DNA of 64,000 bases from Escherichia coli (lineage in GTDB: Bacteria > Pseudomonadota > Gammaproteobacteria > Enterobacterales > Enterobacteriaceae): NCBI RefSeq assembly GCF_003334305.1, contig NZ_QOWS01000004.1. One strand, 5' to 3'. Positions 1 to 52,081 of this stretch are shown here, piece by piece; within the stretch, counting starts at the first letter, position 1, and the number at the start of each line of letters is the position of its first letter. The position numbers and the translations under genes were made by a program. The notes beneath the pieces are model-generated. The model did no database searches, was not told where the DNA came from, and worked only from the letters and a program-made list of their open reading frames with translations.

Positions 1-68
1 CGGGAGGATTCGAACCTCCGACCGCTCGGTTCGTAGCCGAGTACTCTATCCAGCTGAGCTACGGATGC
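1..68 (-). tRNA. argY: tRNA-Arg (anticodon ACG), 3' end cut by window edge
   Basis: Reverse complement reads GCATCCGTAGCTCAGCTGGATAGAGTACTCGGCTACGAACCGAGCGGTCGGAGGTTCGAATCCTCCCG, identical to the full copy at 266-342; symbol assigned by position in the K-12 serV-argV-argY-argZ-argQ cluster. Confidence 0.9.
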
Positions 69-132
69 ATCGGGAAACTTACTTTACTGCAGATTTTTTG
101 ATACCGCTACTAAAGCCGTATCAAGTAAGAGG

Positions 133-151
133 TGGTGCATCCGGGAGGATT
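133..151 (-). other. 19-nt fragment identical to the 3' end (acceptor/T-arm plus CCA) of tRNA-Arg, inside the inter-tRNA spacer
   Basis: tggtgcatccgggaggatt matches the first 19 nt of the tRNA copies at 266 and at window start, then diverges. Confidence 0.6.
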
Positions 152-265
152 ACTCGCCTTGCGGCTCGCCCTTCGGGCCGTTGCTAAAGCAACGTTATCC
201 TCCCTGGTGCCTGCGGTTATACCGCCACCTCTTCCATACCTTCATCGCTGAAAGTACGTAGAATA

Positions 266-342
266 TGGTGCATCCGGGAGGATTCGAACCTCCGACCGCT
301 CGGTTCGTAGCCGAGTACTCTATCCAGCTGAGCTACGGATGC
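266..342 (-). tRNA. argV: tRNA-Arg (anticodon ACG), complete 77 nt with encoded CCA
   Basis: Reverse complement gives canonical cloverleaf GCATCCGTAGCTCAGCTGGATAGAGTACTCGGCTACGAACCGAGCGGTCGGAGGTTCGAATCCTCCCGGATGCACCA. Confidence 0.95.
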
Positions 343-345
343 AAA

Positions 346-438
346 TGGCGGTGAGGCGGGGATTCGAACCCCGGATGCAGCTTTTGACCGCATACTCCCT
401 TAGCAGGGGAGCGCCTTCAGCCTCTCGGCCACCTCACC
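346..438 (-). tRNA. serV: tRNA-Ser (anticodon GCU), 93 nt with long variable arm
   Basis: Reverse complement GGTGAGGTGGCCGAGAGGCTGAAGGCGCTCCCCTGCTAAGGGAGTATGCGGTCAAAAGCTGCATCCGGGGTTCGAATCCCCGCCTCACCGCCA; 3 nt from argV. Confidence 0.95.
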
Positions 439-14380: not shown

Positions 14381-14396
14381 TGGCACGCAATCTGCA
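14381..14396 (+). promoter_or_regulatory. Sigma54 (-24/-12) promoter of norVW
   Basis: TGGCACgcaatcTGCA matches the TGGCAC-N5-TTGCA consensus, ~50 nt upstream of the norV ATG. Confidence 0.85.
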
Positions 14397-20171: not shown

Positions 20172-20319
20172 CAAATTCTCCAGCAATGACAGTTAATGCG
20201 CCGATACATTCACAAATCATGCCAGTTTTTAATTTGCTGTTATTTAAGGAAATTAATTTCTGTAATGCAGGAAAAAAGATGTCATCGACACTAGTGACGA
20301 TGACATGTGATGACAATGT

Positions 20320-24593: not shown

Positions 24594-25013
24594 TCAAAGA
24601 AACCATTCCGGCTTAACGCCAAATCGGGCTGAAAGTGCCTTAATGTGGGATATTGTCAGGGATCGTTGTCCAGACAAAATCTGACTGACCAGGGATTTAG
24701 AGCCGATTTCGTTCTTCAAATCCGCATAGGTCAGATTATGTTGATCAATCAACGTGCGAAGTAACGCCACGCCAACCGGCATTGCCGCAACGGCTTTGTC
24801 GAACTCTGCAAACTTTTCGTTGTTGTTTTCATACTCTGCAATGCGGCTCGCCAGAAAGTCGATAAGTGGATTGGTGTCATCTTCTTCAATCAAATATTCG
24901 ACCAGTTCCAGTGCTTCACGATAATCATCTTCTGAGTCACTGCCTCCCAGAAAGGGGACTGCATTGACCAGTTCTCTTGTTGCTTTAACAGCGCGTGCAG
25001 CATTAGCAGTCAT
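24594..25013 (-). CDS. HigA-family antitoxin-like HTH (Xre/Cro-type) protein, no adjacent toxin gene
   Basis: ORF track 24594..25079 (TTG start); ATG at 25011-25013 gives 140 aa MTANAARAVKATRELVNAVPFLGG...GSKSLVSQILSGQRSLTISHIKALSARFGVKPEWFL; by eye about half the residues match my recollection of E. coli HigA (YgjM). Confidence 0.7.
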   Translation of the reverse strand: MTANAARAVKATRELVNAVPFLGGSDSEDDYREALELVEYLIEEDDTNPLIDFLASRIAEYENNNEKFAEFDKAVAAMPVGVALLRTLIDQHNLTYADLKNEIGSKSLVSQILSGQRSLTISHIKALSARFGVKPEWFL

Positions 25014-25032
25014 TCTTTGTTCTCTCTGTAGT

Positions 25033-25055
25033 AACGTGACGTCTGTCTGCACGTA
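25033..25055. promoter_or_regulatory. Inverted repeat ACGTG-N11-CACGT upstream of the HigA-like gene (candidate autoregulatory operator)
   Basis: aacgtgacgtctgtctgcacgtaa between the ORF B stop and the HigA-like ATG. Confidence 0.35.
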
Positions 25056-25083
25056 ATCCCCCTCATAGCCACTCTGCAAAAAG

Positions 25084-25857
25084 TCAGTTCTGGTTCACCC
25101 CATAAAGCACATCCCCCTTTATCAAGCAACGCTGCGTCTGCGCCAGATCTTCCGTTTGCGGGTCGCGCCCGGCGATGGGTTTGAGGACGAGTTTACGGTT
25201 GGGGGTATAAGTAAAACGCGTGAGCGCGGGATAGCTTAACTTGCCAAACCAGCCGTGAACACGCTGCCATTTGGCGTCTTTTACCTGATACAGACTGGTT
25301 ATCCAGTAACCAGAATTAAACTGCATATCCAGCAATTGCGTGTGACCATTGCCTTGCAAATCCAGCAAATCATCTACGCCAGTTTTGCTTGCGGTGTAGA
25401 ATCCCCTGGGTTCAAAGACACAGGGACGGCCTTCGCGCGTGAACGTCATAAGAATTAAATGTGCATAAGGAGCCAGACCATTACCGGTACTTGGTAACCA
25501 GATAACCAGATCCTGAATGCCGTTACGATCAAGATCGGCGCGATAGAGTTGCCCTTTGCCCGCTATGTTTGCCAGCATACCCACAGGCACAGACCAGGAT
25601 TTACCGGCGCGATCTTTACCGTTCAATTGCCATTCACTATCATCATTTGGCATCTTTTCAAGCGTCACGCCAGCAACGCCCACTTTTCTAAAATGCCAGG
25701 TTTGCTCGGCATCATAAGGCATGGTCAGGAGAGGTTTCAGCGCCCGCTTTTGCGCGTATTCGCTGTCACTCATTGGCAGATATTCGGTAAAGCTGGTGGC
25801 CTGTGCAGGCAGCACTAAGCTCAATAAAAAAGCGCACATCCCTGTTCTGATATTCAT
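25084..25857 (-). CDS. Sec-exported protein of unknown function with two DxDxNG-like (FG-GAP/calcium-loop-like) motifs
   Basis: ORF track 257 aa; signal peptide MNIRTGMCAFLLSLVLPAQA|TS; motifs ADLDRNGIQDLVIW and DDLLDLQGNGHTQLL; ATG 24 nt downstream of hycI stop, same strand. Confidence 0.65.
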   Translation of the reverse strand: MNIRTGMCAFLLSLVLPAQATSFTEYLPMSDSEYAQKRALKPLLTMPYDAEQTWHFRKVGVAGVTLEKMPNDDSEWQLNGKDRAGKSWSVPVGMLANIAGKGQLYRADLDRNGIQDLVIWLPSTGNGLAPYAHLILMTFTREGRPCVFEPRGFYTASKTGVDDLLDLQGNGHTQLLDMQFNSGYWITSLYQVKDAKWQRVHGWFGKLSYPALTRFTYTPNRKLVLKPIAGRDPQTEDLAQTQRCLIKGDVLYGVNQN

Positions 25858-32550: not shown

Positions 32551-33158
32551 TTAGCCTCTCCACTTTGAGCCTGCTGAAACAAGGTGAGATCGCCAAAGTC
32601 CGTGTTAAAGGTCAGCTCACGCTTACGTTTGCTGACGCGGGCGATATCGGTGTTATCCACCAGATGCAGGGCTTTAGTCGGGCACATCCGCACGCAGGCC
32701 GGACCTTGTTCATCAAAACTGCAAAGGTCACATTTGACGGCGATCGCGCGAATACCCGGCACCCAGTCAAGCAGCGTACTGATACGCGCCGGAGCAGGCG
32801 GTGCCGGTGGCGCTTTCGGGGTATTGGCATTTGCAGGAATATCCAGCGGACGGCTGCCGGAAAATTCAATTGCGCCAAACGGGCAGGCGATGCCGCACAG
32901 CTTGCAGCTTACGCACAGGCTTTCATTCAACTGCACGGCCCCATCAACGCGGGTGATGGCGTTAACCGGGCAGACCACCGCGCAGGGTGCATCTTCACAG
33001 TGGTGACAGAGCTGCGGCGCAGATTCTTTTTCATTTAGCATCACTCTCAGGCGCGGCATTGATTGCAGGCCGTGCTGGCGATGCGTCTCTGAACAGGCGG
33101 CCTCACAAGTGTGGCAGCCGATACAGAGCGTGGAGTCAGCAATTACAAAACGATTCAC
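32547..33158 (-). CDS. hycB: Formate hydrogenlyase 4Fe-4S ferredoxin subunit
   Basis: ORF track 203 aa; four Cys clusters. Confidence 0.95.
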   Translation of the reverse strand: MNRFVIADSTLCIGCHTCEAACSETHRQHGLQSMPRLRVMLNEKESAPQLCHHCEDAPCAVVCPVNAITRVDGAVQLNESLCVSCKLCGIACPFGAIEFSGSRPLDIPANANTPKAPPAPPAPARISTLLDWVPGIRAIAVKCDLCSFDEQGPACVRMCPTKALHLVDNTDIARVSKRKRELTFNTDFGDLTLFQQAQSGEAK

Positions 33159-33282
33159 CAGGCATTCCTCAGGTGATTGTCATTTTTGACGAAAACATGC
33201 CGATGAAATGTCATTTTCGACACTCATCGACACGCCCATCCCCAAACAGGCGTAACGCCTGCAAAACGGGCAAAGCCTCAGC

Positions 33283-33744
33283 TCATGCTGCCGGGCTTTG
33301 TCCCTTTACCAGTTGGCTTAAATTCACCGGCACATTGTTTTCAATGGCGGTGTATAAGCTGTCGTAAACGCCAGCGATTTTTTCGAGATAGTGTTCCAGA
33401 ACCTGTTCGCGATCGCGGATGTTGACCTTGCCATCAATCATGCCGTCAATGCTCAGTTGCGCCTGCGCAATCCGCTGTTTGTCTTCGCCATCTTTTGTTT
33501 CGACGTAATACTCGATGGTGTGGCTGTTAAAGCCATCCGCCAGGGTGACGTAAATACGAAAATGTTCAAAAAGGACGAAACAGAGTTCTTTGTCCGGCGC
33601 GCAGCTCATGGCGTGATGCAGGCGCGCTTTCGATAACGTGATCCCCTGAACCAGCGAATTGCAGTAGATGTGCCACTGGTCCTGTAGGCGACGATGCCGC
33701 TGTGCGATGTAATCGGCTTTCTCGCTTATTTCCCAAATAGTCAT
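33283..33744 (-). CDS. hycA: Formate hydrogenlyase regulatory protein HycA (antagonist of FhlA)
   Basis: ORF track 153 aa MTIWEISEKADYIAQRHRRLQDQWHIYCNS; first gene of hyc operon. Confidence 0.93.
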   Translation of the reverse strand: MTIWEISEKADYIAQRHRRLQDQWHIYCNSLVQGITLSKARLHHAMSCAPDKELCFVLFEHFRIYVTLADGFNSHTIEYYVETKDGEDKQRIAQAQLSIDGMIDGKVNIRDREQVLEHYLEKIAGVYDSLYTAIENNVPVNLSQLVKGQSPAA

Positions 33745-33781
33745 TGTCAGGTTACCCGTTTAACAGAGATGCCAGCTTTAA

Positions 33782-33796
33782 GCATTTTTTGTGCCA
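33782..33796 (-). promoter_or_regulatory. Sigma54 (-24/-12) promoter of the hyc operon
   Basis: Minus strand reads TGGCACaaaaaATGCt upstream of hycA. Confidence 0.8.
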
Positions 33797-33844
33797 ACTT
33801 TTAATTTATTGTTATTAAAGAGATTTTTAAGCTAAAGATGAATT

Positions 33845-33890
33845 TCGTCGCCGTGTCGACGTGTCATTTCGACATCATCGACATTATTCA
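33845..33890. promoter_or_regulatory. Candidate FhlA upstream activating region (repeated TGTCG / CGACA half-sites)
   Basis: tcgtcgccgtgtcgacgtgtcatttcgacatcatcgacatt, dense inverted repeats between the divergent sigma54 promoters. Confidence 0.55.
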
Positions 33891-33909
33891 CCGCAGGGAT
33901 AATCAACAC

Positions 33910-33925
33910 TGGCACAATTATTGCT
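33910..33925 (+). promoter_or_regulatory. Sigma54 (-24/-12) promoter of the hyp operon
   Basis: TGGCACaattaTTGCt about 30 nt upstream of hypA. Confidence 0.8.
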
Positions 33926-33955
33926 TGTAGCTGGCAATAGTTAATGGGAGGCGAT

Positions 33956-34306
33956 ATGCACGAAATAACCCTCTGCCAACGGGCACTGGAATTGATCGAA
34001 CAGCAGGCCGCAAAACACGGCGCAAAACGCGTAACTGGGGTCTGGCTCAAAATTGGCGCATTTTCTTGTGTCGAAACCAGCTCTCTTGCCTTTTGTTTTG
34101 ATCTGGTTTGCCGCGGCAGCGTGGCGGAAGGTTGTAAACTGCACCTCGAAGAACAAGAGGCCGAATGCTGGTGTGAAACATGCCAACAGTATGTGACGCT
34201 ACTGACCCAGCGCGTCCGCCGCTGTCCACAGTGTCATGGTGACATGCTACAGATTGTGGCAGACGACGGTTTACAGATTCGGCGGATAGAAATAGACCAG
34301 GAGTGA
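33956..34306 (+). CDS. hypA: Hydrogenase nickel incorporation protein HypA
   Basis: ORF track 33944..34306; start at MHEITLCQRALELIEQQ preceded by gggagg RBS, 116 aa; C-terminal CxxC...CxxC zinc site. Confidence 0.93.
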   Translation: MHEITLCQRALELIEQQAAKHGAKRVTGVWLKIGAFSCVETSSLAFCFDLVCRGSVAEGCKLHLEEQEAECWCETCQQYVTLLTQRVRRCPQCHGDMLQIVADDGLQIRRIEIDQE

Positions 34307-34309
34307 GCG

Positions 34310-35182
34310 ATGTGTACAACATGCGGTTGCGGTGAAGGCAACCTGTATATCGAGGGTGATGAACATAACCCTCATTCCGCGTTTCGTAGCGCGCCATTTG
34401 CCCCGGCGGCACGCCCGAAGATGAAAATCACCGGCATTAAAGCGCCTGAATTTACCCCCAGCCAGACTGAAGAAGGCGACCTGCATTACGGTCATGGCGA
34501 AGCGGGCACTCACGCACCGGGCATGAGCCAGCGTCGGATGCTGGAAGTCGAAATTGACGTGCTGGACAAAAACAACCGTCTGGCTGAACGCAACCGCGCG
34601 CGCTTTGCTGCCCGCAAGCAACTGGTGCTCAACCTGGTTTCCAGCCCTGGTTCCGGTAAAACCACCCTGCTGACGGAAACCTTAATGCGCCTGAAAGACA
34701 GCGTTCCGTGCGCGGTTATTGAAGGTGACCAGCAAACCGTGAACGATGCCGCACGCATTCGCGCTACCGGCACACCAGCGATTCAGGTGAACACCGGTAA
34801 AGGCTGCCATCTTGACGCACAGATGATTGCCGACGCCGCACCGCGTCTGCCACTGGACGATAACGGTATTCTGTTTATCGAAAACGTTGGCAACCTCGTA
34901 TGCCCGGCCAGCTTCGATCTCGGTGAAAAACACAAAGTGGCGGTGCTTTCCGTTACCGAAGGTGAAGACAAACCGCTGAAATATCCGCATATGTTTGCCG
35001 CCGCCTCGCTGATGCTGCTCAACAAAGTTGACCTGTTGCCGTATCTCAACTTTGACGTTGAAAAGTGCATCGCCTGCGCCCGCGAAGTCAATCCAGAAAT
35101 TGAAATCATCCTTATTTCCGCCACCAGCGGTGAAGGGATGGACCAGTGGCTGAACTGGCTGGAGACACAGCGATGTGCATAG
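34310..35182 (+). CDS. hypB: Hydrogenase maturation nickel GTPase HypB
   Basis: ORF track 290 aa; N-terminal [10 protein letters not shown] metal site, P-loop [10 protein letters not shown]. Confidence 0.95.
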
Positions 35183-37646: not shown

Positions 37647-39725
37647 ATGTCATATACACCGATGAGTGATCTCGGACAGCAAGGGTTGTTCGACATCACT
37701 CGGACACTATTGCAGCAGCCCGATCTGGCCTCGCTGTGTGAGGCTCTTTCGCAACTGGTAAAGCGTTCTGCGCTCGCCGACAACGCGGCTATTGTGTTGT
37801 GGCAAGCGCAGACTCAACGTGCGTCTTATTACGCATCGCGTGAAAAAGACACCCCCATTAAATATGAAGACGAAACTGTTCTGGCACACGGTCCGGTACG
37901 CAGCATTTTGTCGCGCCCTGATACGCTGCATTGCAGTTACGAAGAATTTTGTGAAACCTGGCCGCAGCTGGCCGCAGGTGGGCTATACCCAAAATTTGGT
38001 CACTATTGCCTGATGCCACTGGCGGCGGAAGGGCATATTTTTGGTGGCTGTGAATTTATTCGTTATGACGATCGCCCCTGGAGCGAAAAAGAGTTCAATC
38101 GTCTGCAAACATTTACGCAGATCGTTTCTGTCGTCACCGAACAAATCCAGAGCCGCGTCGTTAACAATGTCGACTATGAGTTGTTATGCCGGGAACGCGA
38201 TAACTTCCGCATCCTGGTCGCCATCACCAACGCGGTGCTTTCCCGCCTGGATATGGACGAACTGGTCAGCGAAGTCGCCAAAGAAATCCATTACTATTTC
38301 GACATTGACGATATCAGTATCGTCTTACGCAGCCACCGTAAAAACAAACTCAACATCTACTCCACTCACTATCTTGATAAACAGCATCCCGCCCACGAAC
38401 AGAGCGAAGTCGATGAAGCCGGAACCCTCACCGAACGCGTGTTCAAAAGTAAAGAGATGCTGCTGATCAATCTCCACGAGCGGGACGATTTAGCCCCCTA
38501 TGAACGCATGTTGTTCGACACCTGGGGCAACCAGATTCAAACCTTGTGCCTGTTACCGCTGATGTCTGGCGACACCATGCTGGGCGTGCTGAAACTGGCG
38601 CAATGCGAAGAGAAAGTGTTTACCACTACCAATCTGAATTTACTGCGCCAGATTGCCGAACGTGTGGCAATCGCTGTCGATAACGCCCTCGCCTATCAGG
38701 AAATCCATCGTCTGAAAGAACGGCTGGTTGATGAAAACCTCGCCCTGACCGAGCAGCTCAACAATGTTGATAGTGAATTTGGCGAGATTATTGGCCGCAG
38801 CGAAGCCATGTACAGCGTGCTTAAACAAGTTGAAATGGTGGCGCAAAGTGACAGTACCGTGCTGATCCTCGGTGAAACTGGCACGGGTAAAGAGCTGATT
38901 GCCCGTGCGATCCATAATCTCAGTGGGCGTAATAATCGCCGCATGGTCAAAATGAACTGCGCGGCGATGCCTGCCGGATTGCTGGAAAGCGATCTGTTTG
39001 GTCATGAGCGTGGGGCTTTTACCGGTGCCAGCGCCCAGCGCATTGGTCGTTTTGAACTGGCGGATAAAAGCTCCCTGTTCCTCGACGAAGTGGGCGATAT
39101 GCCACTGGAGTTACAGCCGAAGTTGCTGCGTGTATTGCAGGAACAGGAGTTTGAACGTCTCGGCAGCAACAAAATCATTCAGACGGACGTGCGTCTAATC
39201 GCCGCGACTAACCGCGATCTGAAAAAAATGGTCGCCGACCGTGAGTTCCGTAGCGATCTCTATTACCGCCTGAACGTATTCCCGATTCACCTGCCGCCAC
39301 TACGCGAGCGTCCGGAAGATATTCCGCTGCTGGCGAAAGCCTTTACCTTCAAAATTGCCCGTCGTCTGGGGCGCAATATCGACAGCATTCCTGCCGAGAC
39401 GCTGCGCACCTTGAGCAACATGGAGTGGCCGGGTAACGTACGCGAACTGGAAAACGTCATTGAGCGCGCGGTATTGCTAACACGCGGTAACGTGCTGCAG
39501 CTGTCATTGCCAGATATTGTTTTACCGGAACCTGAAACGCCGCCTGCCGCAACGGTTGTCGCCCAGGAGGGCGAAGATGAATATCAGTTGATTGTTCGCG
39601 TGCTGAAAGAAACCAACGGCGTGGTTGCCGGGCCTAAAGGCGCTGCGCAACGTCTGGGGCTGAAACGCACGACCCTGCTGTCACGGATGAAGCGGCTGGG
39701 AATTGATAAATCGGCATTGATTTAA
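37647..39725 (+). CDS. fhlA: Formate hydrogenlyase transcriptional activator FhlA (sigma54-dependent)
   Basis: ORF track 37611..39725; start at MSYTPMSDLGQQGLFDITRTLL, 692 aa; GAF domains + AAA+ ([14 protein letters not shown]) + HTH. Confidence 0.93.
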   Translation: MSYTPMSDLGQQGLFDITRTLLQQPDLASLCEALSQLVKRSALADNAAIVLWQAQTQRASYYASREKDTPIKYEDETVLAHGPVRSILSRPDTLHCSYEEFCETWPQLAAGGLYPKFGHYCLMPLAAEGHIFGGCEFIRYDDRPWSEKEFNRLQTFTQIVSVVTEQIQSRVVNNVDYELLCRERDNFRILVAITNAVLSRLDMDELVSEVAKEIHYYFDIDDISIVLRSHRKNKLNIYSTHYLDKQHPAHEQSEVDEAGTLTERVFKSKEMLLINLHERDDLAPYERMLFDTWGNQIQTLCLLPLMSGDTMLGVLKLAQCEEKVFTTTNLNLLRQIAERVAIAVDNALAYQEIHRLKERLVDENLALTEQLNNVDSEFGEIIGRSEAMYSVLKQVEMVAQSDSTVLILGETGTGKELIARAIHNLSGRNNRRMVKMNCAAMPAGLLESDLFGHERGAFTGASAQRIGRFELADKSSLFLDEVGDMPLELQPKLLRVLQEQEFERLGSNKIIQTDVRLIAATNRDLKKMVADREFRSDLYYRLNVFPIHLPPLRERPEDIPLLAKAFTFKIARRLGRNIDSIPAETLRTLSNMEWPGNVRELENVIERAVLLTRGNVLQLSLPDIVLPEPETPPAATVVAQEGEDEYQLIVRVLKETNGVVAGPKGAAQRLGLKRTTLLSRMKRLGIDKSALI

Positions 39726-49780: not shown

Positions 49781-49816
49781 ATAAAAAGGTCCGATGGGCA
49801 TCGGACCTTTTATTTA
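49781..49816. terminator. Bidirectional rho-independent terminator shared by convergent ygbN and ecdD
   Basis: ataaaaa-ggtccgatg-ggc-catcggacc-tttttattt: stem flanked by an A-run and a T-run. Confidence 0.8.
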
Positions 49817-50050
49817 ACGCTTACCTTCCACCAGCAGCGGCGGGATGCTCGGCACCATTGGCGCGTCATCAATATCTTTCTGCGTCATGCGGAACGCTTC
49901 GGGATAATGTTCGCGGCTGGTACGGCGCAGCGGTTCGGTATCGCGCCAGGTATAAAGGCAATGCTGGCACTGATATACCGTCCAGACATCTTTCACCGGC
50001 GATTTCGCCATCACTTCAATCTGTTCATCGGCACAACGTGGACAAATCAT
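49814..50050 (-). CDS. ecdD: Small zinc-ribbon subunit of UbiD-family phenolic acid decarboxylase (BsdD/EcdD-like)
   Basis: ORF track 78 aa MICPRCADEQIEVMAKSPVKDVWTVYQCQHCLYTW (CxxC...CxxC); last gene of the UbiX-UbiD-small subunit operon. Confidence 0.75.
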   Translation of the reverse strand: MICPRCADEQIEVMAKSPVKDVWTVYQCQHCLYTWRDTEPLRRTSREHYPEAFRMTQKDIDDAPMVPSIPPLLVEGKR

Positions 50051-50060
50051 CTTCTTCTCC

Positions 50061-51488
50061 TTATTTACGTGCAGCCAGCATAGCGGTCAGTTTTTCAGCC
50101 CAGGCTTTGGTTTCCGGTAAATCCACCACCGGTTGGCTGTAGTGACCACGGTTGTCCGGGGCGACAGGCGTAGTGGCGTCGATAATCAGCTTGTCGGTGA
50201 TCCCCGCAGGGCTTGAGCCTGGATCGAGTTCCAGCACGGACATATTCGGCAACTGCACCAAATCCCCTGCCGGGTTCACTTTCGAGGAGAGCGCCCACAT
50301 CACCTGCGGCAGGTTGAACGGGTCAACGTCTTCATCGACCATAATCACCATCTTCACGTAGCCCAGACCATGCGGCGTGGTCATTGCGCGCAGGCCCACC
50401 GCGCGGGCAAAGCCGCCGTAGCGTTTTTTGGTGGAGATAATCGCCAGCAGGCCATGGGTGTACATGGCGTTTACCGCCTGCACTTCAGGGAACTCGGCTT
50501 TCAGCTGCTGATACAGCGGCACGCAGGTGGCTGGCCCCATCAGGTAGTCGATTTCGGTCCACGGCATACCGAGGTACAGCGATTCGAAAATCGGCCTGGT
50601 GCGGTAAGAGACTTTATCGATGCGCACCACGGTCATGTTACGCCCGCCGGAGTAGTGCCCGGTAAACTCACCGAACGGCCCTTCGATTTCGCGTTTACGG
50701 CTTTCGATAACCCCTTCGAGGATCACTTCTGAACCCCACGGCACATCAAAACCGGTCAGCGGGGCGGTGGCGATCGGGTACGGGCTTTCACGCAGCGCGC
50801 CTGCCATTTCATACTCAGACTGATCGTATTTCAGCGGCGTGGCCCCCATCAGCGTGATGATCGGATCGTTACCGAGCGTGATCGCAATCGGCAGATCTTC
50901 ACCGCGCTCTTCTGCTTTATGCAGATGCAGGGCGATATCGTGCATCGGCACCGGTTGCAGGCCGAGCTTACGCTTGCCCTTCACTTCCATGCGGTAGATG
51001 CCGACGTTCTGCTTGCCGAAGTTATCTGGGTCGAGCGGATCGCGGGAAACCACGCAGGCTTTGTCGAGATAGAAACCGCCATCGCCATCGTTTAAACGAA
51101 ACAGCGGCAGGATATCGAACAGGTTAATCTCTTCGCCATCGACGGTGTTCTGCGCCCAGGCTGGATTGGCGCGGCGCTCCGGGGCAATCGGGAAGTTATC
51201 CCAGCGGCGGATAAACTCATCAATCTGCTTTTTGACCGGGGTGTTTGGTGGCAGGCCAAGGGAAATCGCGTGGTTCTGCCAGGAACCGATGGTATTCATC
51301 GTCACGCGGGCATCGGTAAAGCCGCGAATATTATCAAACCACAGCGCGGGCGCGCCGTCGCCGATACGCCCGGTGGCGTTAGCTGCTGCTGCCAGATCCG
51401 GCTCAGCGTTCACCTCTTCGCTGATTTTCAGTAACTGGCCGTGGTCATCAAGCGCCTGTAAAAAGCTGCGTAAATCATCAAATGCCAT
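50061..51488 (-). CDS. ecdC: UbiD-family (prenyl-FMN-dependent) aromatic acid decarboxylase
   Basis: ORF track 475 aa MAFDDLRSFLQALDDHGQLLKISEEVNAEPDL. Confidence 0.85.
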   Translation of the reverse strand: MAFDDLRSFLQALDDHGQLLKISEEVNAEPDLAAAANATGRIGDGAPALWFDNIRGFTDARVTMNTIGSWQNHAISLGLPPNTPVKKQIDEFIRRWDNFPIAPERRANPAWAQNTVDGEEINLFDILPLFRLNDGDGGFYLDKACVVSRDPLDPDNFGKQNVGIYRMEVKGKRKLGLQPVPMHDIALHLHKAEERGEDLPIAITLGNDPIITLMGATPLKYDQSEYEMAGALRESPYPIATAPLTGFDVPWGSEVILEGVIESRKREIEGPFGEFTGHYSGGRNMTVVRIDKVSYRTRPIFESLYLGMPWTEIDYLMGPATCVPLYQQLKAEFPEVQAVNAMYTHGLLAIISTKKRYGGFARAVGLRAMTTPHGLGYVKMVIMVDEDVDPFNLPQVMWALSSKVNPAGDLVQLPNMSVLELDPGSSPAGITDKLIIDATTPVAPDNRGHYSQPVVDLPETKAWAEKLTAMLAARK

Positions 51489-52081
51489 TATTCATTCTCC
51501 TGAGAAAAATTCCGGGCCTGCGGCAATCCTTGCCAGCGCCTGGCATGGGGATGTTCGAGGCCAAATTTATCCAGCACGCGGGCTACCACATGGTGGACAA
51601 TGTCATCTACCGTTTCGGGATGGTTATAAAAGGCAGGCATCGGCGGCACCATCGCCACGCCCATGCGTGAAAGTGCGAGCATATTTTCGAGATGGATGGT
51701 GCTAAGCGGCATTTCACGCGGCACCAGCACCAGTTTGCGGCCTTCTTTGAGCACGACGTCCGCCGCGCGCCCTACCAGGCCATCGGCGTAACCAGCGCGG
51801 ATACCGGCGAGCGTTTTCATACTGCACGGAATAACGATCATGCCGTCGGTACGAAAAGAACCGGATGAGATGATCGCCGCCTGATCCGCCGGGTTATGGC
51901 TGAAGTCTGCGAGGGCAGCAACATCGCGAGCGCTGTAAGGCGTTTCCAGTTCAATGGTGGTTTTCGCCCACTTCGACATCACCAGATGAGTCTCGACATT
52001 CGGCATCTCCCGCAGCGCTTGCAGTAATGCCACACCAAGAGGCGCACCGGTAGCCCCTGTCATCCCGACGATCAGTTTCAT
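51488..52081 (-). CDS. ecdB: UbiX/Pad1-family flavin prenyltransferase
   Basis: ORF track 197 aa MKLIVGMTGATGAPLGVALLQAL; stop overlaps the ecdC start. Confidence 0.85.
   Translation of the reverse strand: MKLIVGMTGATGAPLGVALLQALREMPNVETHLVMSKWAKTTIELETPYSARDVAALADFSHNPADQAAIISSGSFRTDGMIVIPCSMKTLAGIRAGYADGLVGRAADVVLKEGRKLVLVPREMPLSTIHLENMLALSRMGVAMVPPMPAFYNHPETVDDIVHHVVARVLDKFGLEHPHARRWQGLPQARNFSQENE

Follow-up and report, generated by a model that had tools for sequence, protein, structure and literature searches.

The region between hycA and hypA in this stretch of Escherichia coli DNA is very probably the characterized hyc/hyp control region of the formate regulon, in which divergent sigma54 promoters are combined with FhlA-type enhancers. 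We analyzed 64,000 nucleotides in all (the window), a piece of the E. coli chromosome with the order alaS-recA-srl-norRVW-hypF-hydN-asc-hyc-hyp-fhlA-mutS. The hycA-hypA spacer occupies 33745-33955 (211 bp), exactly the interval that a first-pass annotation, made from the sequence, had marked as a divergent sigma54 control region with a central FhlA-site-like repeat. Alignment with the characterized hyc/hyp region, which that annotation had suggested as a check, showed both the hycA-hypA and the hycA-hycB spacers to be 100% identical to E. coli K-12 MG1655; there is no difference from the K-12 control region (hycAp, hypAp) in either of them. Between the starts of hycB and hypA, the two sequences differ only by two substitutions in hycA, at window positions 33346 and 33556. 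The hycA-hypA spacer was found in all 5,426 of 5,426 complete E. coli genomes, at 90-100% identity.

We take the K-12 region to be the one characterized by Lutz et al. (1990), Schlensog et al. (1994), Hopper et al. (1994), and Leonhartsberger et al. (2000). Judged by its sequence, the control region here is one already known, an ordinary region that repeats the K-12 version base for base. Its discovery value is accordingly small: it is a classic region for sigma54 and its enhancer-binding proteins, with the same sequence as in the experiments. Its practical value is that of a positive control, as it indicates that -24/-12 promoters and arrays of activator sites can be recognized from raw sequence. 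The features discussed below are collected in Table 1.

Table 1. Features of the hyc/hyp control region and related loci, in window coordinates
Feature	Position	Strand	Details
hydN-hypF control region	~20209-20315	-	GTC/GAC cluster at 20280-20315; IHF-like AATAACAGCAAATTAAAA; CTGGCATGATTTGTGAA at 20225-20209
Second FhlA-type enhancer (putative)	33178-33233		GTCATTTTTGACGAAA at 33179-33194 and TGTCATTTTCGACACTCATCGACAC at 33209-33233
hycA CDS	33283-33744	-	153 aa; FhlA anti-activator, first in the hyc operon (hycABCDEFGHI); open reading frame, annotated in identical E. coli records
hyc sigma54 promoter	33781-33797	-	TTGGCACAAAAAATGCT; GG 33795/33794, GC 33783/33782; predicted start ~33770, 26-nt leader
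IHF-like core	33802-33814	-	TAACAATAAATTA; one mismatch to WATCAANNNNTTR; 5 nt upstream of hyc -24
Central FhlA-type enhancer (putative UAS)	33853-33886		Repeated GTC/GAC units, conserved core GACGTGTCATTTCGACATCATCGACAT
hyp sigma54 promoter	33909-33925	+	CTGGCACAATTATTGCT; GG 33911/33912, GC 33923/33924; predicted start ~33936, 20-nt leader
hypA ribosome-binding site	33947-33951	+	GGAGG
hypA CDS	33956-34306	+	116 aa; first gene of hypABCDE-fhlA; ATG at 33956
fhlA	37647-39725	+	Formate-sensing sigma54 activator, last gene of the hyp transcription unit; annotated in identical strains

Divergent sigma54 promoters

A -24/-12 motif faces each of the two genes, as the first-pass annotation had proposed. 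On the minus strand, TGGCACAAAAAATGC at 33782-33796 is directed toward hycA; on the plus strand, TGGCACAATTATTGC at 33910-33924 is directed toward hypA. The promoters stand back to back, 114 bp apart; in both, GG and GC are separated by 10 nt, and the GC dinucleotides are found 38 nt (hycA) and 32 nt (hypA) upstream of the start codons. TGGCAC-N5-TTGC is matched exactly just once in the 64 kb, by the hyp motif; the hyc motif departs from this pattern at one position (ATGC). When one mismatch was allowed, the pattern gave 8 matches against 7.6 expected in 64 kb, which is chance frequency; the pattern alone is thus uninformative, and we therefore scored the window with a sigma54 weight matrix built from 186 promoters (PMC7658346, Table 2). 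This prediction ranked the hyp motif first, with a score of 18.65, and the hyc motif fourth, with 14.93, among ~128,000 positions. Mononucleotide shuffles gave 0.565 matches scoring at least 14.9 per 64 kb, a rate from which the probability of two such matches within ~212 bp is ~2e-6.

Both promoters correspond to sites of sigma54 occupancy in vivo. Bonocora et al. (2015; PMC4591121) described the E. coli MG1655 sigma54 ChIP-seq sites OS27 (hycA) and OS28 (hypA), each flagged as a confirmed promoter, with a stronger peak at OS28; the 17-mers TTGGCACAAAAAATGCT and CTGGCACAATTATTGCT agree with OS27 and OS28 base for base. The same paper lists a value of 26 for hycA and 20 for hypA. We read these values as leader lengths, which would place the transcription starts near 33770 on the minus strand and 33936 on the plus strand, in each case 12 nt past the GC dinucleotide. 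The hycA-hypA spacer was also recovered by gSELEX, an in vitro genomic selection with the sigma54 holoenzyme (PMC8743547).

To this we added a HycA-based scan with one genome per species, which yielded 80 loci (L002-L081) and, with the window, 81 sequences; the genera included Escherichia, Salmonella, Citrobacter, Enterobacter, Klebsiella, Raoultella, Kluyvera, Kosakonia, Lelliottia, Pseudocitrobacter, and Pseudescherichia, among others. All 80 loci have hypA facing away from hycA-hycB, and their spacers measure 188-223 bp. The GG and GC pairs, on whose presence in a careful alignment the first-pass annotation had staked its reading, are kept at both promoters in 81/81 of these enterobacterial species-level sequences. 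Both promoters hold a fixed position across the 80 species, that of hyc at 50-53 nt from the hycA start codon, and the GGAGGC that precedes hypA is invariant in an alignment of 19 genera.

Other sigma54-like sequences came up in these searches. The second-best match to the sigma54 matrix is the norV promoter, TGGCACGCAATCTGCA at 14381-14396 on the plus strand, which is ChIP-seq site OS25 (PMC4591121). A further motif, TGGCACATCTACTGCA, is found inside hycA at 33660-33675 on the minus strand and scores 15.0, slightly above the real hyc promoter. We rejected it as a promoter because it spells the codons W-H-I-Y-C; TGC and TGT alternate freely as the Cys codon, and the His codon varies too. Its score ranges from 4 to 19 across species, and the -12 GC is lost in many of them through the synonymous TGC/TGT change; in the text of PMC4591121, hycA is named in the OS27 promoter entry only. 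The motif looks like a by-product of coding. The two promoters also form a 27-nt inverted repeat (81%), 33770-33796 versus 33910-33936, which runs past the -12 elements to about +1 (TGCTTaaAGCTGGCA versus TGCTTgtAGCTGGCA). As a functional element this repeat was rejected; the extension is restricted to Escherichia and absent in other genera.

FhlA-type arrays in two spacers

Between the two promoters lies a repeat-dense segment, which the first-pass annotation had recognized; the repeat string gtgtcgacgtgtcatttcgacatcatcgaca covers 33853-33883, and a repeat search of the spacer returned the short direct repeats TCGACATCA/TCGACATTA and GTCGCCGT/GTCGACGT. An unsupervised, model-free count of TGTC/GACA tetramers found four of them within 36 nt in this central block. 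Clusters of at least four within 36 nt occur twice in the 64 kb, at 33854 and at 20280, against a shuffle mean of 0.42; the cluster at 20280 lies ~60 bp upstream of the sigma54 promoter of hydN, an FhlA-controlled unit. Counted from the predicted transcription starts, the center of the central block falls at about -100 for hyc (start at 33770) and at about -67 for hyp. The former position fits that of an FhlA enhancer (UAS) of hyc.

Two descriptions of the FhlA site were applied. The idealized 16-nt consensus that PMC4987338 quotes from Leonhartsberger 2000, CATTTCGTACGAAATG, is matched nowhere in the window with up to three mismatches, and the half-site CATTTCG, at 33864-33870, is the sole part of it that is visible. 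Since this consensus is idealized, we relied instead on a 14-nt matrix made from 13 characterized sites (PMC7658346) and on the motif-free statistics. The matrix scores are partly circular, because those 13 sites very probably include these E. coli sequences. With this reservation, TGTCGATGATGTCG at 33870-33883 on the minus strand scores 16.1 of a maximum 17.1, the second-best match in the window. TGTCATTTCGACA, the unit of the central block that is conserved best, scores poorly with the matrix; its spacer measures 5 nt instead of 6 nt. Conservation gives a view of the block that does not depend on a motif model: the block is conserved across ~19 genera and its flanks are not.

A second array, overlooked by the first-pass annotation, is located in the 124-bp spacer between hycA and hycB, 20 bp from the hycB start codon and ~715-750 bp upstream of the hyp start. 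It contains the best FhlA matrix match in the window, TGTCGAAAATGACA at 33209-33222, which reaches the maximum score of 17.1 with a matrix that is partly circular, and a further match at 33178-33191 with a score of 11.8. GTCATTTTTGACGAAA is invariant in 19/19 genera, and together with TCGACAC-N3-TCGACAC it makes up an almost invariant portion of the hycA-hycB spacer across the 19 genera, with a conservation that exceeds that of the central block. The central block is a near-copy of this array (TGTCATTTCGACATCATCGACA versus TGTCATTTTCGACACTCATCGACA) and is similar to the array at hydN; all three belong to FhlA-controlled units. Both the central block and the hycA-hycB block are retained in all 80 related loci.

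Since the stretch from the hycA-hycB array to hycB contains no sigma54 motif, the target of the array must be a remote one. Schlensog et al. (1994) reportedly found FhlA to bind in the hyc-hyp as well as the hycA-hycB spacer, the latter being required for induction of hyp; on that account, the hycA-hycB array would be the activator element of hyp and the central block that of hyc. The main hyp enhancer is most likely the hycA-hycB array, acting over ~0.7 kb. The first-pass reading of the spacer as the known FhlA-activated control region therefore stands as to identity, but the enhancer set extends beyond the central repeat to the array at 33178-33233, which that reading missed.

Promoter geometry and proposed mode of activation

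Alignment of the spacer showed six conserved islands in a diverged background. In order, these are the hycA leader with its ribosome-binding site; the hyc -12/-24 elements; an A/T-rich TTAA...TTGAT; a core, GAC-r-TGTCATTTCG-w-CA...TCGACAT; the hyp -24/-12 elements; and the hypA GGAGGC. Across the 80 species, the distance from the hyc -24 element to a TGTCAT anchor is 44, 55-58, or 66-67 nt, that from the anchor to the hyp -24 element is 46-48 or 57-59 nt, and that from one -24 element to the other is 92, 102-103, or 112-116 nt. These spacings vary only in steps of ~11 bp, or one helical turn, in the 80 enterobacterial species, so that the central array stays in phase with both promoters. Such quantized spacing is compatible with face-of-helix constraints and with an influence of the central array on hyp as well. 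The ~11-bp pattern, however, goes back to only ~4-6 independent insertions or deletions, and repeat units of about one turn, if gained or lost, would produce it equally well. For those who work on enhancer geometry, the quantized spacings are a modest addition.

An IHF-like core is positioned between the central enhancer and the hyc promoter, 5 nt from the T of TGGCAC. Its best match (0-2 mismatches; 27 perfect) lies 4-6 nt from TGGCA in 70 of the 81 species. Hopper et al. (1994) are said to have shown that IHF binds and stimulates hyc. ihfAB is listed as activating both hyc and hyp (PMC2636881). A module of the form AATAACAnnAAATTAAAA-nn-TGGCA precedes the hydN promoter too, and from the IHF core to the end of the -24 element, 21 of 26 nt agree between hydN (AATAACAGCAAATTAAAAACTGGCAT) and hyc (AATAACAATAAATTAAAAGTTGGCAC). 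The hydN-hypF control region, a published sigma54 site and FhlA target (PMC4591121; PMC4987338), resembles hyc in having, in order, a repeat array, the A/T-rich IHF-like core AATAACAnnAAATTAAAA, and TGGCA-N6-TG; unlike hyc/hyp, it points in one direction rather than being divergent, and its -12 element (TGTGAA) is weak. A site common to hyc and hydN and fixed 5 nt from the -24 element is again of modest interest for enhancer geometry.

Taken together, these features suggest the following mechanism. Sigma54 RNA polymerase would wait in closed complexes at both -24/-12 promoters. As formate builds up, FhlA, an enhancer-binding ATPase encoded 3.7 kb downstream, would bind the GTC/GAC repeat arrays, reach the polymerase by DNA looping, and open the promoter with ATP. 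For hyc, FhlA would act from the central block (33853-33886, about -100), with a loop that may be aided by an IHF bend at 33802-33814; for hyp, it would probably act from the hycA-hycB array (33178-33233) over a range of ~0.7 kb. Our analysis itself establishes the motifs, their agreement with K-12, their rarity, and their conservation; the sigma54 occupancy and FhlA dependence of both operons come from published experiments (PMC4591121, PMC3844500, PMC4987338), and the assignment of enhancers to promoters, the binding of IHF, and the start sites are inferred. With fhlA as the last gene of the hyp unit and an antagonist of FhlA encoded by hycA, the arrangement gives both a positive and a negative loop, and loops of both kinds are established for the formate regulon (PMC11841067).

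Other explanations of the spacer were weighed against this mechanism. That the sigma54-like motifs are chance occurrences, and that ordinary sigma70 promoters in the A/T-rich spacer drive the operons, is so improbable that we give it practically no weight. One sigma70-like match is present (33944-33917, minus strand), and the one-mismatch sigma54 pattern is, as noted above, no more frequent than chance (8 versus 7.6); but a single sigma70-like match is also what shuffled sequence provides (1 versus 1.2), and scans for sigma70 promoters and terminators over 33100-34350 remained at chance level. By comparison, the sigma54 motifs hold matrix ranks 1 and 4, are correctly oriented 26 and 20 nt before the genes, are invariant in 81/81 species, and are identical to K-12 motifs that sigma54 occupies in vivo. 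Loss of formate induction in an rpoN mutant has been reported. Very unlikely, too, is a central block that is bound by another regulator or that is a chance or structural feature, for instance the hairpin CGTCGCCGTGTCGACG. The failure of CATTTCGTACGAAATG to match within three mismatches speaks for such a block, as do a terminator-like hairpin called at 33846-33861 and the report that ModE is a secondary activator of hyc (PMC2636881). However, hairpins are at shuffle level (1 found versus 1.7 expected) and no transcript end is expected there, whereas the likeness of the block to the hycA-hycB array and to the hydN enhancer, all in FhlA-controlled units, and its conservation across genera amid diverged flanks both argue for FhlA.

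The alternative that deserves most attention is that the central block is a single, shared bidirectional enhancer for hyc and hyp, with the hycA-hycB array auxiliary or serving some other purpose; this is the picture that the first-pass annotation implied. Its position between the promoters, at about -100 from hyc and -67 from hyp, and the phase that it keeps to both across 80 species agree with this idea. We nevertheless consider it unlikely, since the hycA-hycB array has the best FhlA score and an invariant 16-mer and, with no sigma54 motif before hycB, points to a distant target; the array, not the central block, is reportedly what hyp needs (Schlensog et al. 1994); and the 11-bp steps may reflect repeat-unit gain or loss in some 4-6 independent indels. 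Separate enhancers for hyc and hyp are thus our preferred reading. It is also conceivable, if doubtful, that a central enhancer phase-locked to both promoters is part of a two-promoter nucleoprotein complex, possibly looped to the hycA-hycB enhancer. If true, such a complex would depart from the textbook arrangement of one enhancer per promoter.

The region can also be compared with known systems. Leonhartsberger et al. (2001) reportedly described divergent sigma54 promoters with central ZraR sites at zraP/zraSR. That locus resembles hyc/hyp in its back-to-back sigma54 promoters and in having activator sites in the spacer; it differs in its activator, in its zinc signal, and in that a single central enhancer reportedly acts on both promoters, whereas hyc/hyp has a second, remote enhancer. 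In Salmonella Typhimurium (STM2853/STM2854), the divergent layout and the order of blocks are those of E. coli, with promoters spaced by 112 bp, but both -24 elements read TGGCAT rather than TGGCAC and the sequence between the conserved blocks has diverged. The orthologous Salmonella motifs bind sigma54 in ChIP-chip, and the operons are 26-fold and 5.6-fold sigma54 dependent (PMC3844500); FhlA is named as the activator of Salmonella hyc/hyp (PMC4987338).

Gene content and neighboring features

The first-pass annotation had also stated that the formate hydrogenlyase (FHL) regulon is intact in this strain. An intact control region does not imply intact genes, so this does not follow from the promoter region; it can be judged for the local genes. 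In the window, hycA-I, hypA-E, fhlA, hydN, and hypF are full length, and in a strain that is identical to it over 25 kb they carry no pseudogene flags. The lengths of hycA-I and hypA-C, the genes that are complete in the K-12 record compared, equal those of K-12, and the fhlA open reading frame is unbroken through 39725. As far as gene content goes, the local genes needed to make hydrogen from formate are thereby confirmed in this strain. The wider statement was an overreach, for the window includes neither fdhF nor the molybdenum-cofactor genes nor the selenocysteine machinery.

Besides the hycA substitutions, the local sequence departs from K-12 in one place only: far downstream, between ascB and hycI, it has ~1.3 kb (24594-25857) that K-12 lacks. 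This insert contains two minus-strand ORFs, one for an HTH-domain protein and one for a 257-aa protein with, by eye, a signal-peptide-like N terminus; a family search of the two ORFs against NCBIfam gave no informative match. Another E. coli strain has IS621 at the same spot, which makes the ascB-hycI junction a variable insertion hotspot.

An Rfam scan of the whole 64 kb returned nothing in the control region; its sole matches were three tRNA genes on the minus strand at the edge of the window (1-438), one of which is cut by the window start. On the other side, genes for subunits of a nonoxidative hydroxyarylic acid decarboxylase follow ygbN, at ~49800-51500 and beyond. This stretch appears to be the mosaic mutS-rpoS region (PMC4209514), which is variable between E. 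coli lineages.
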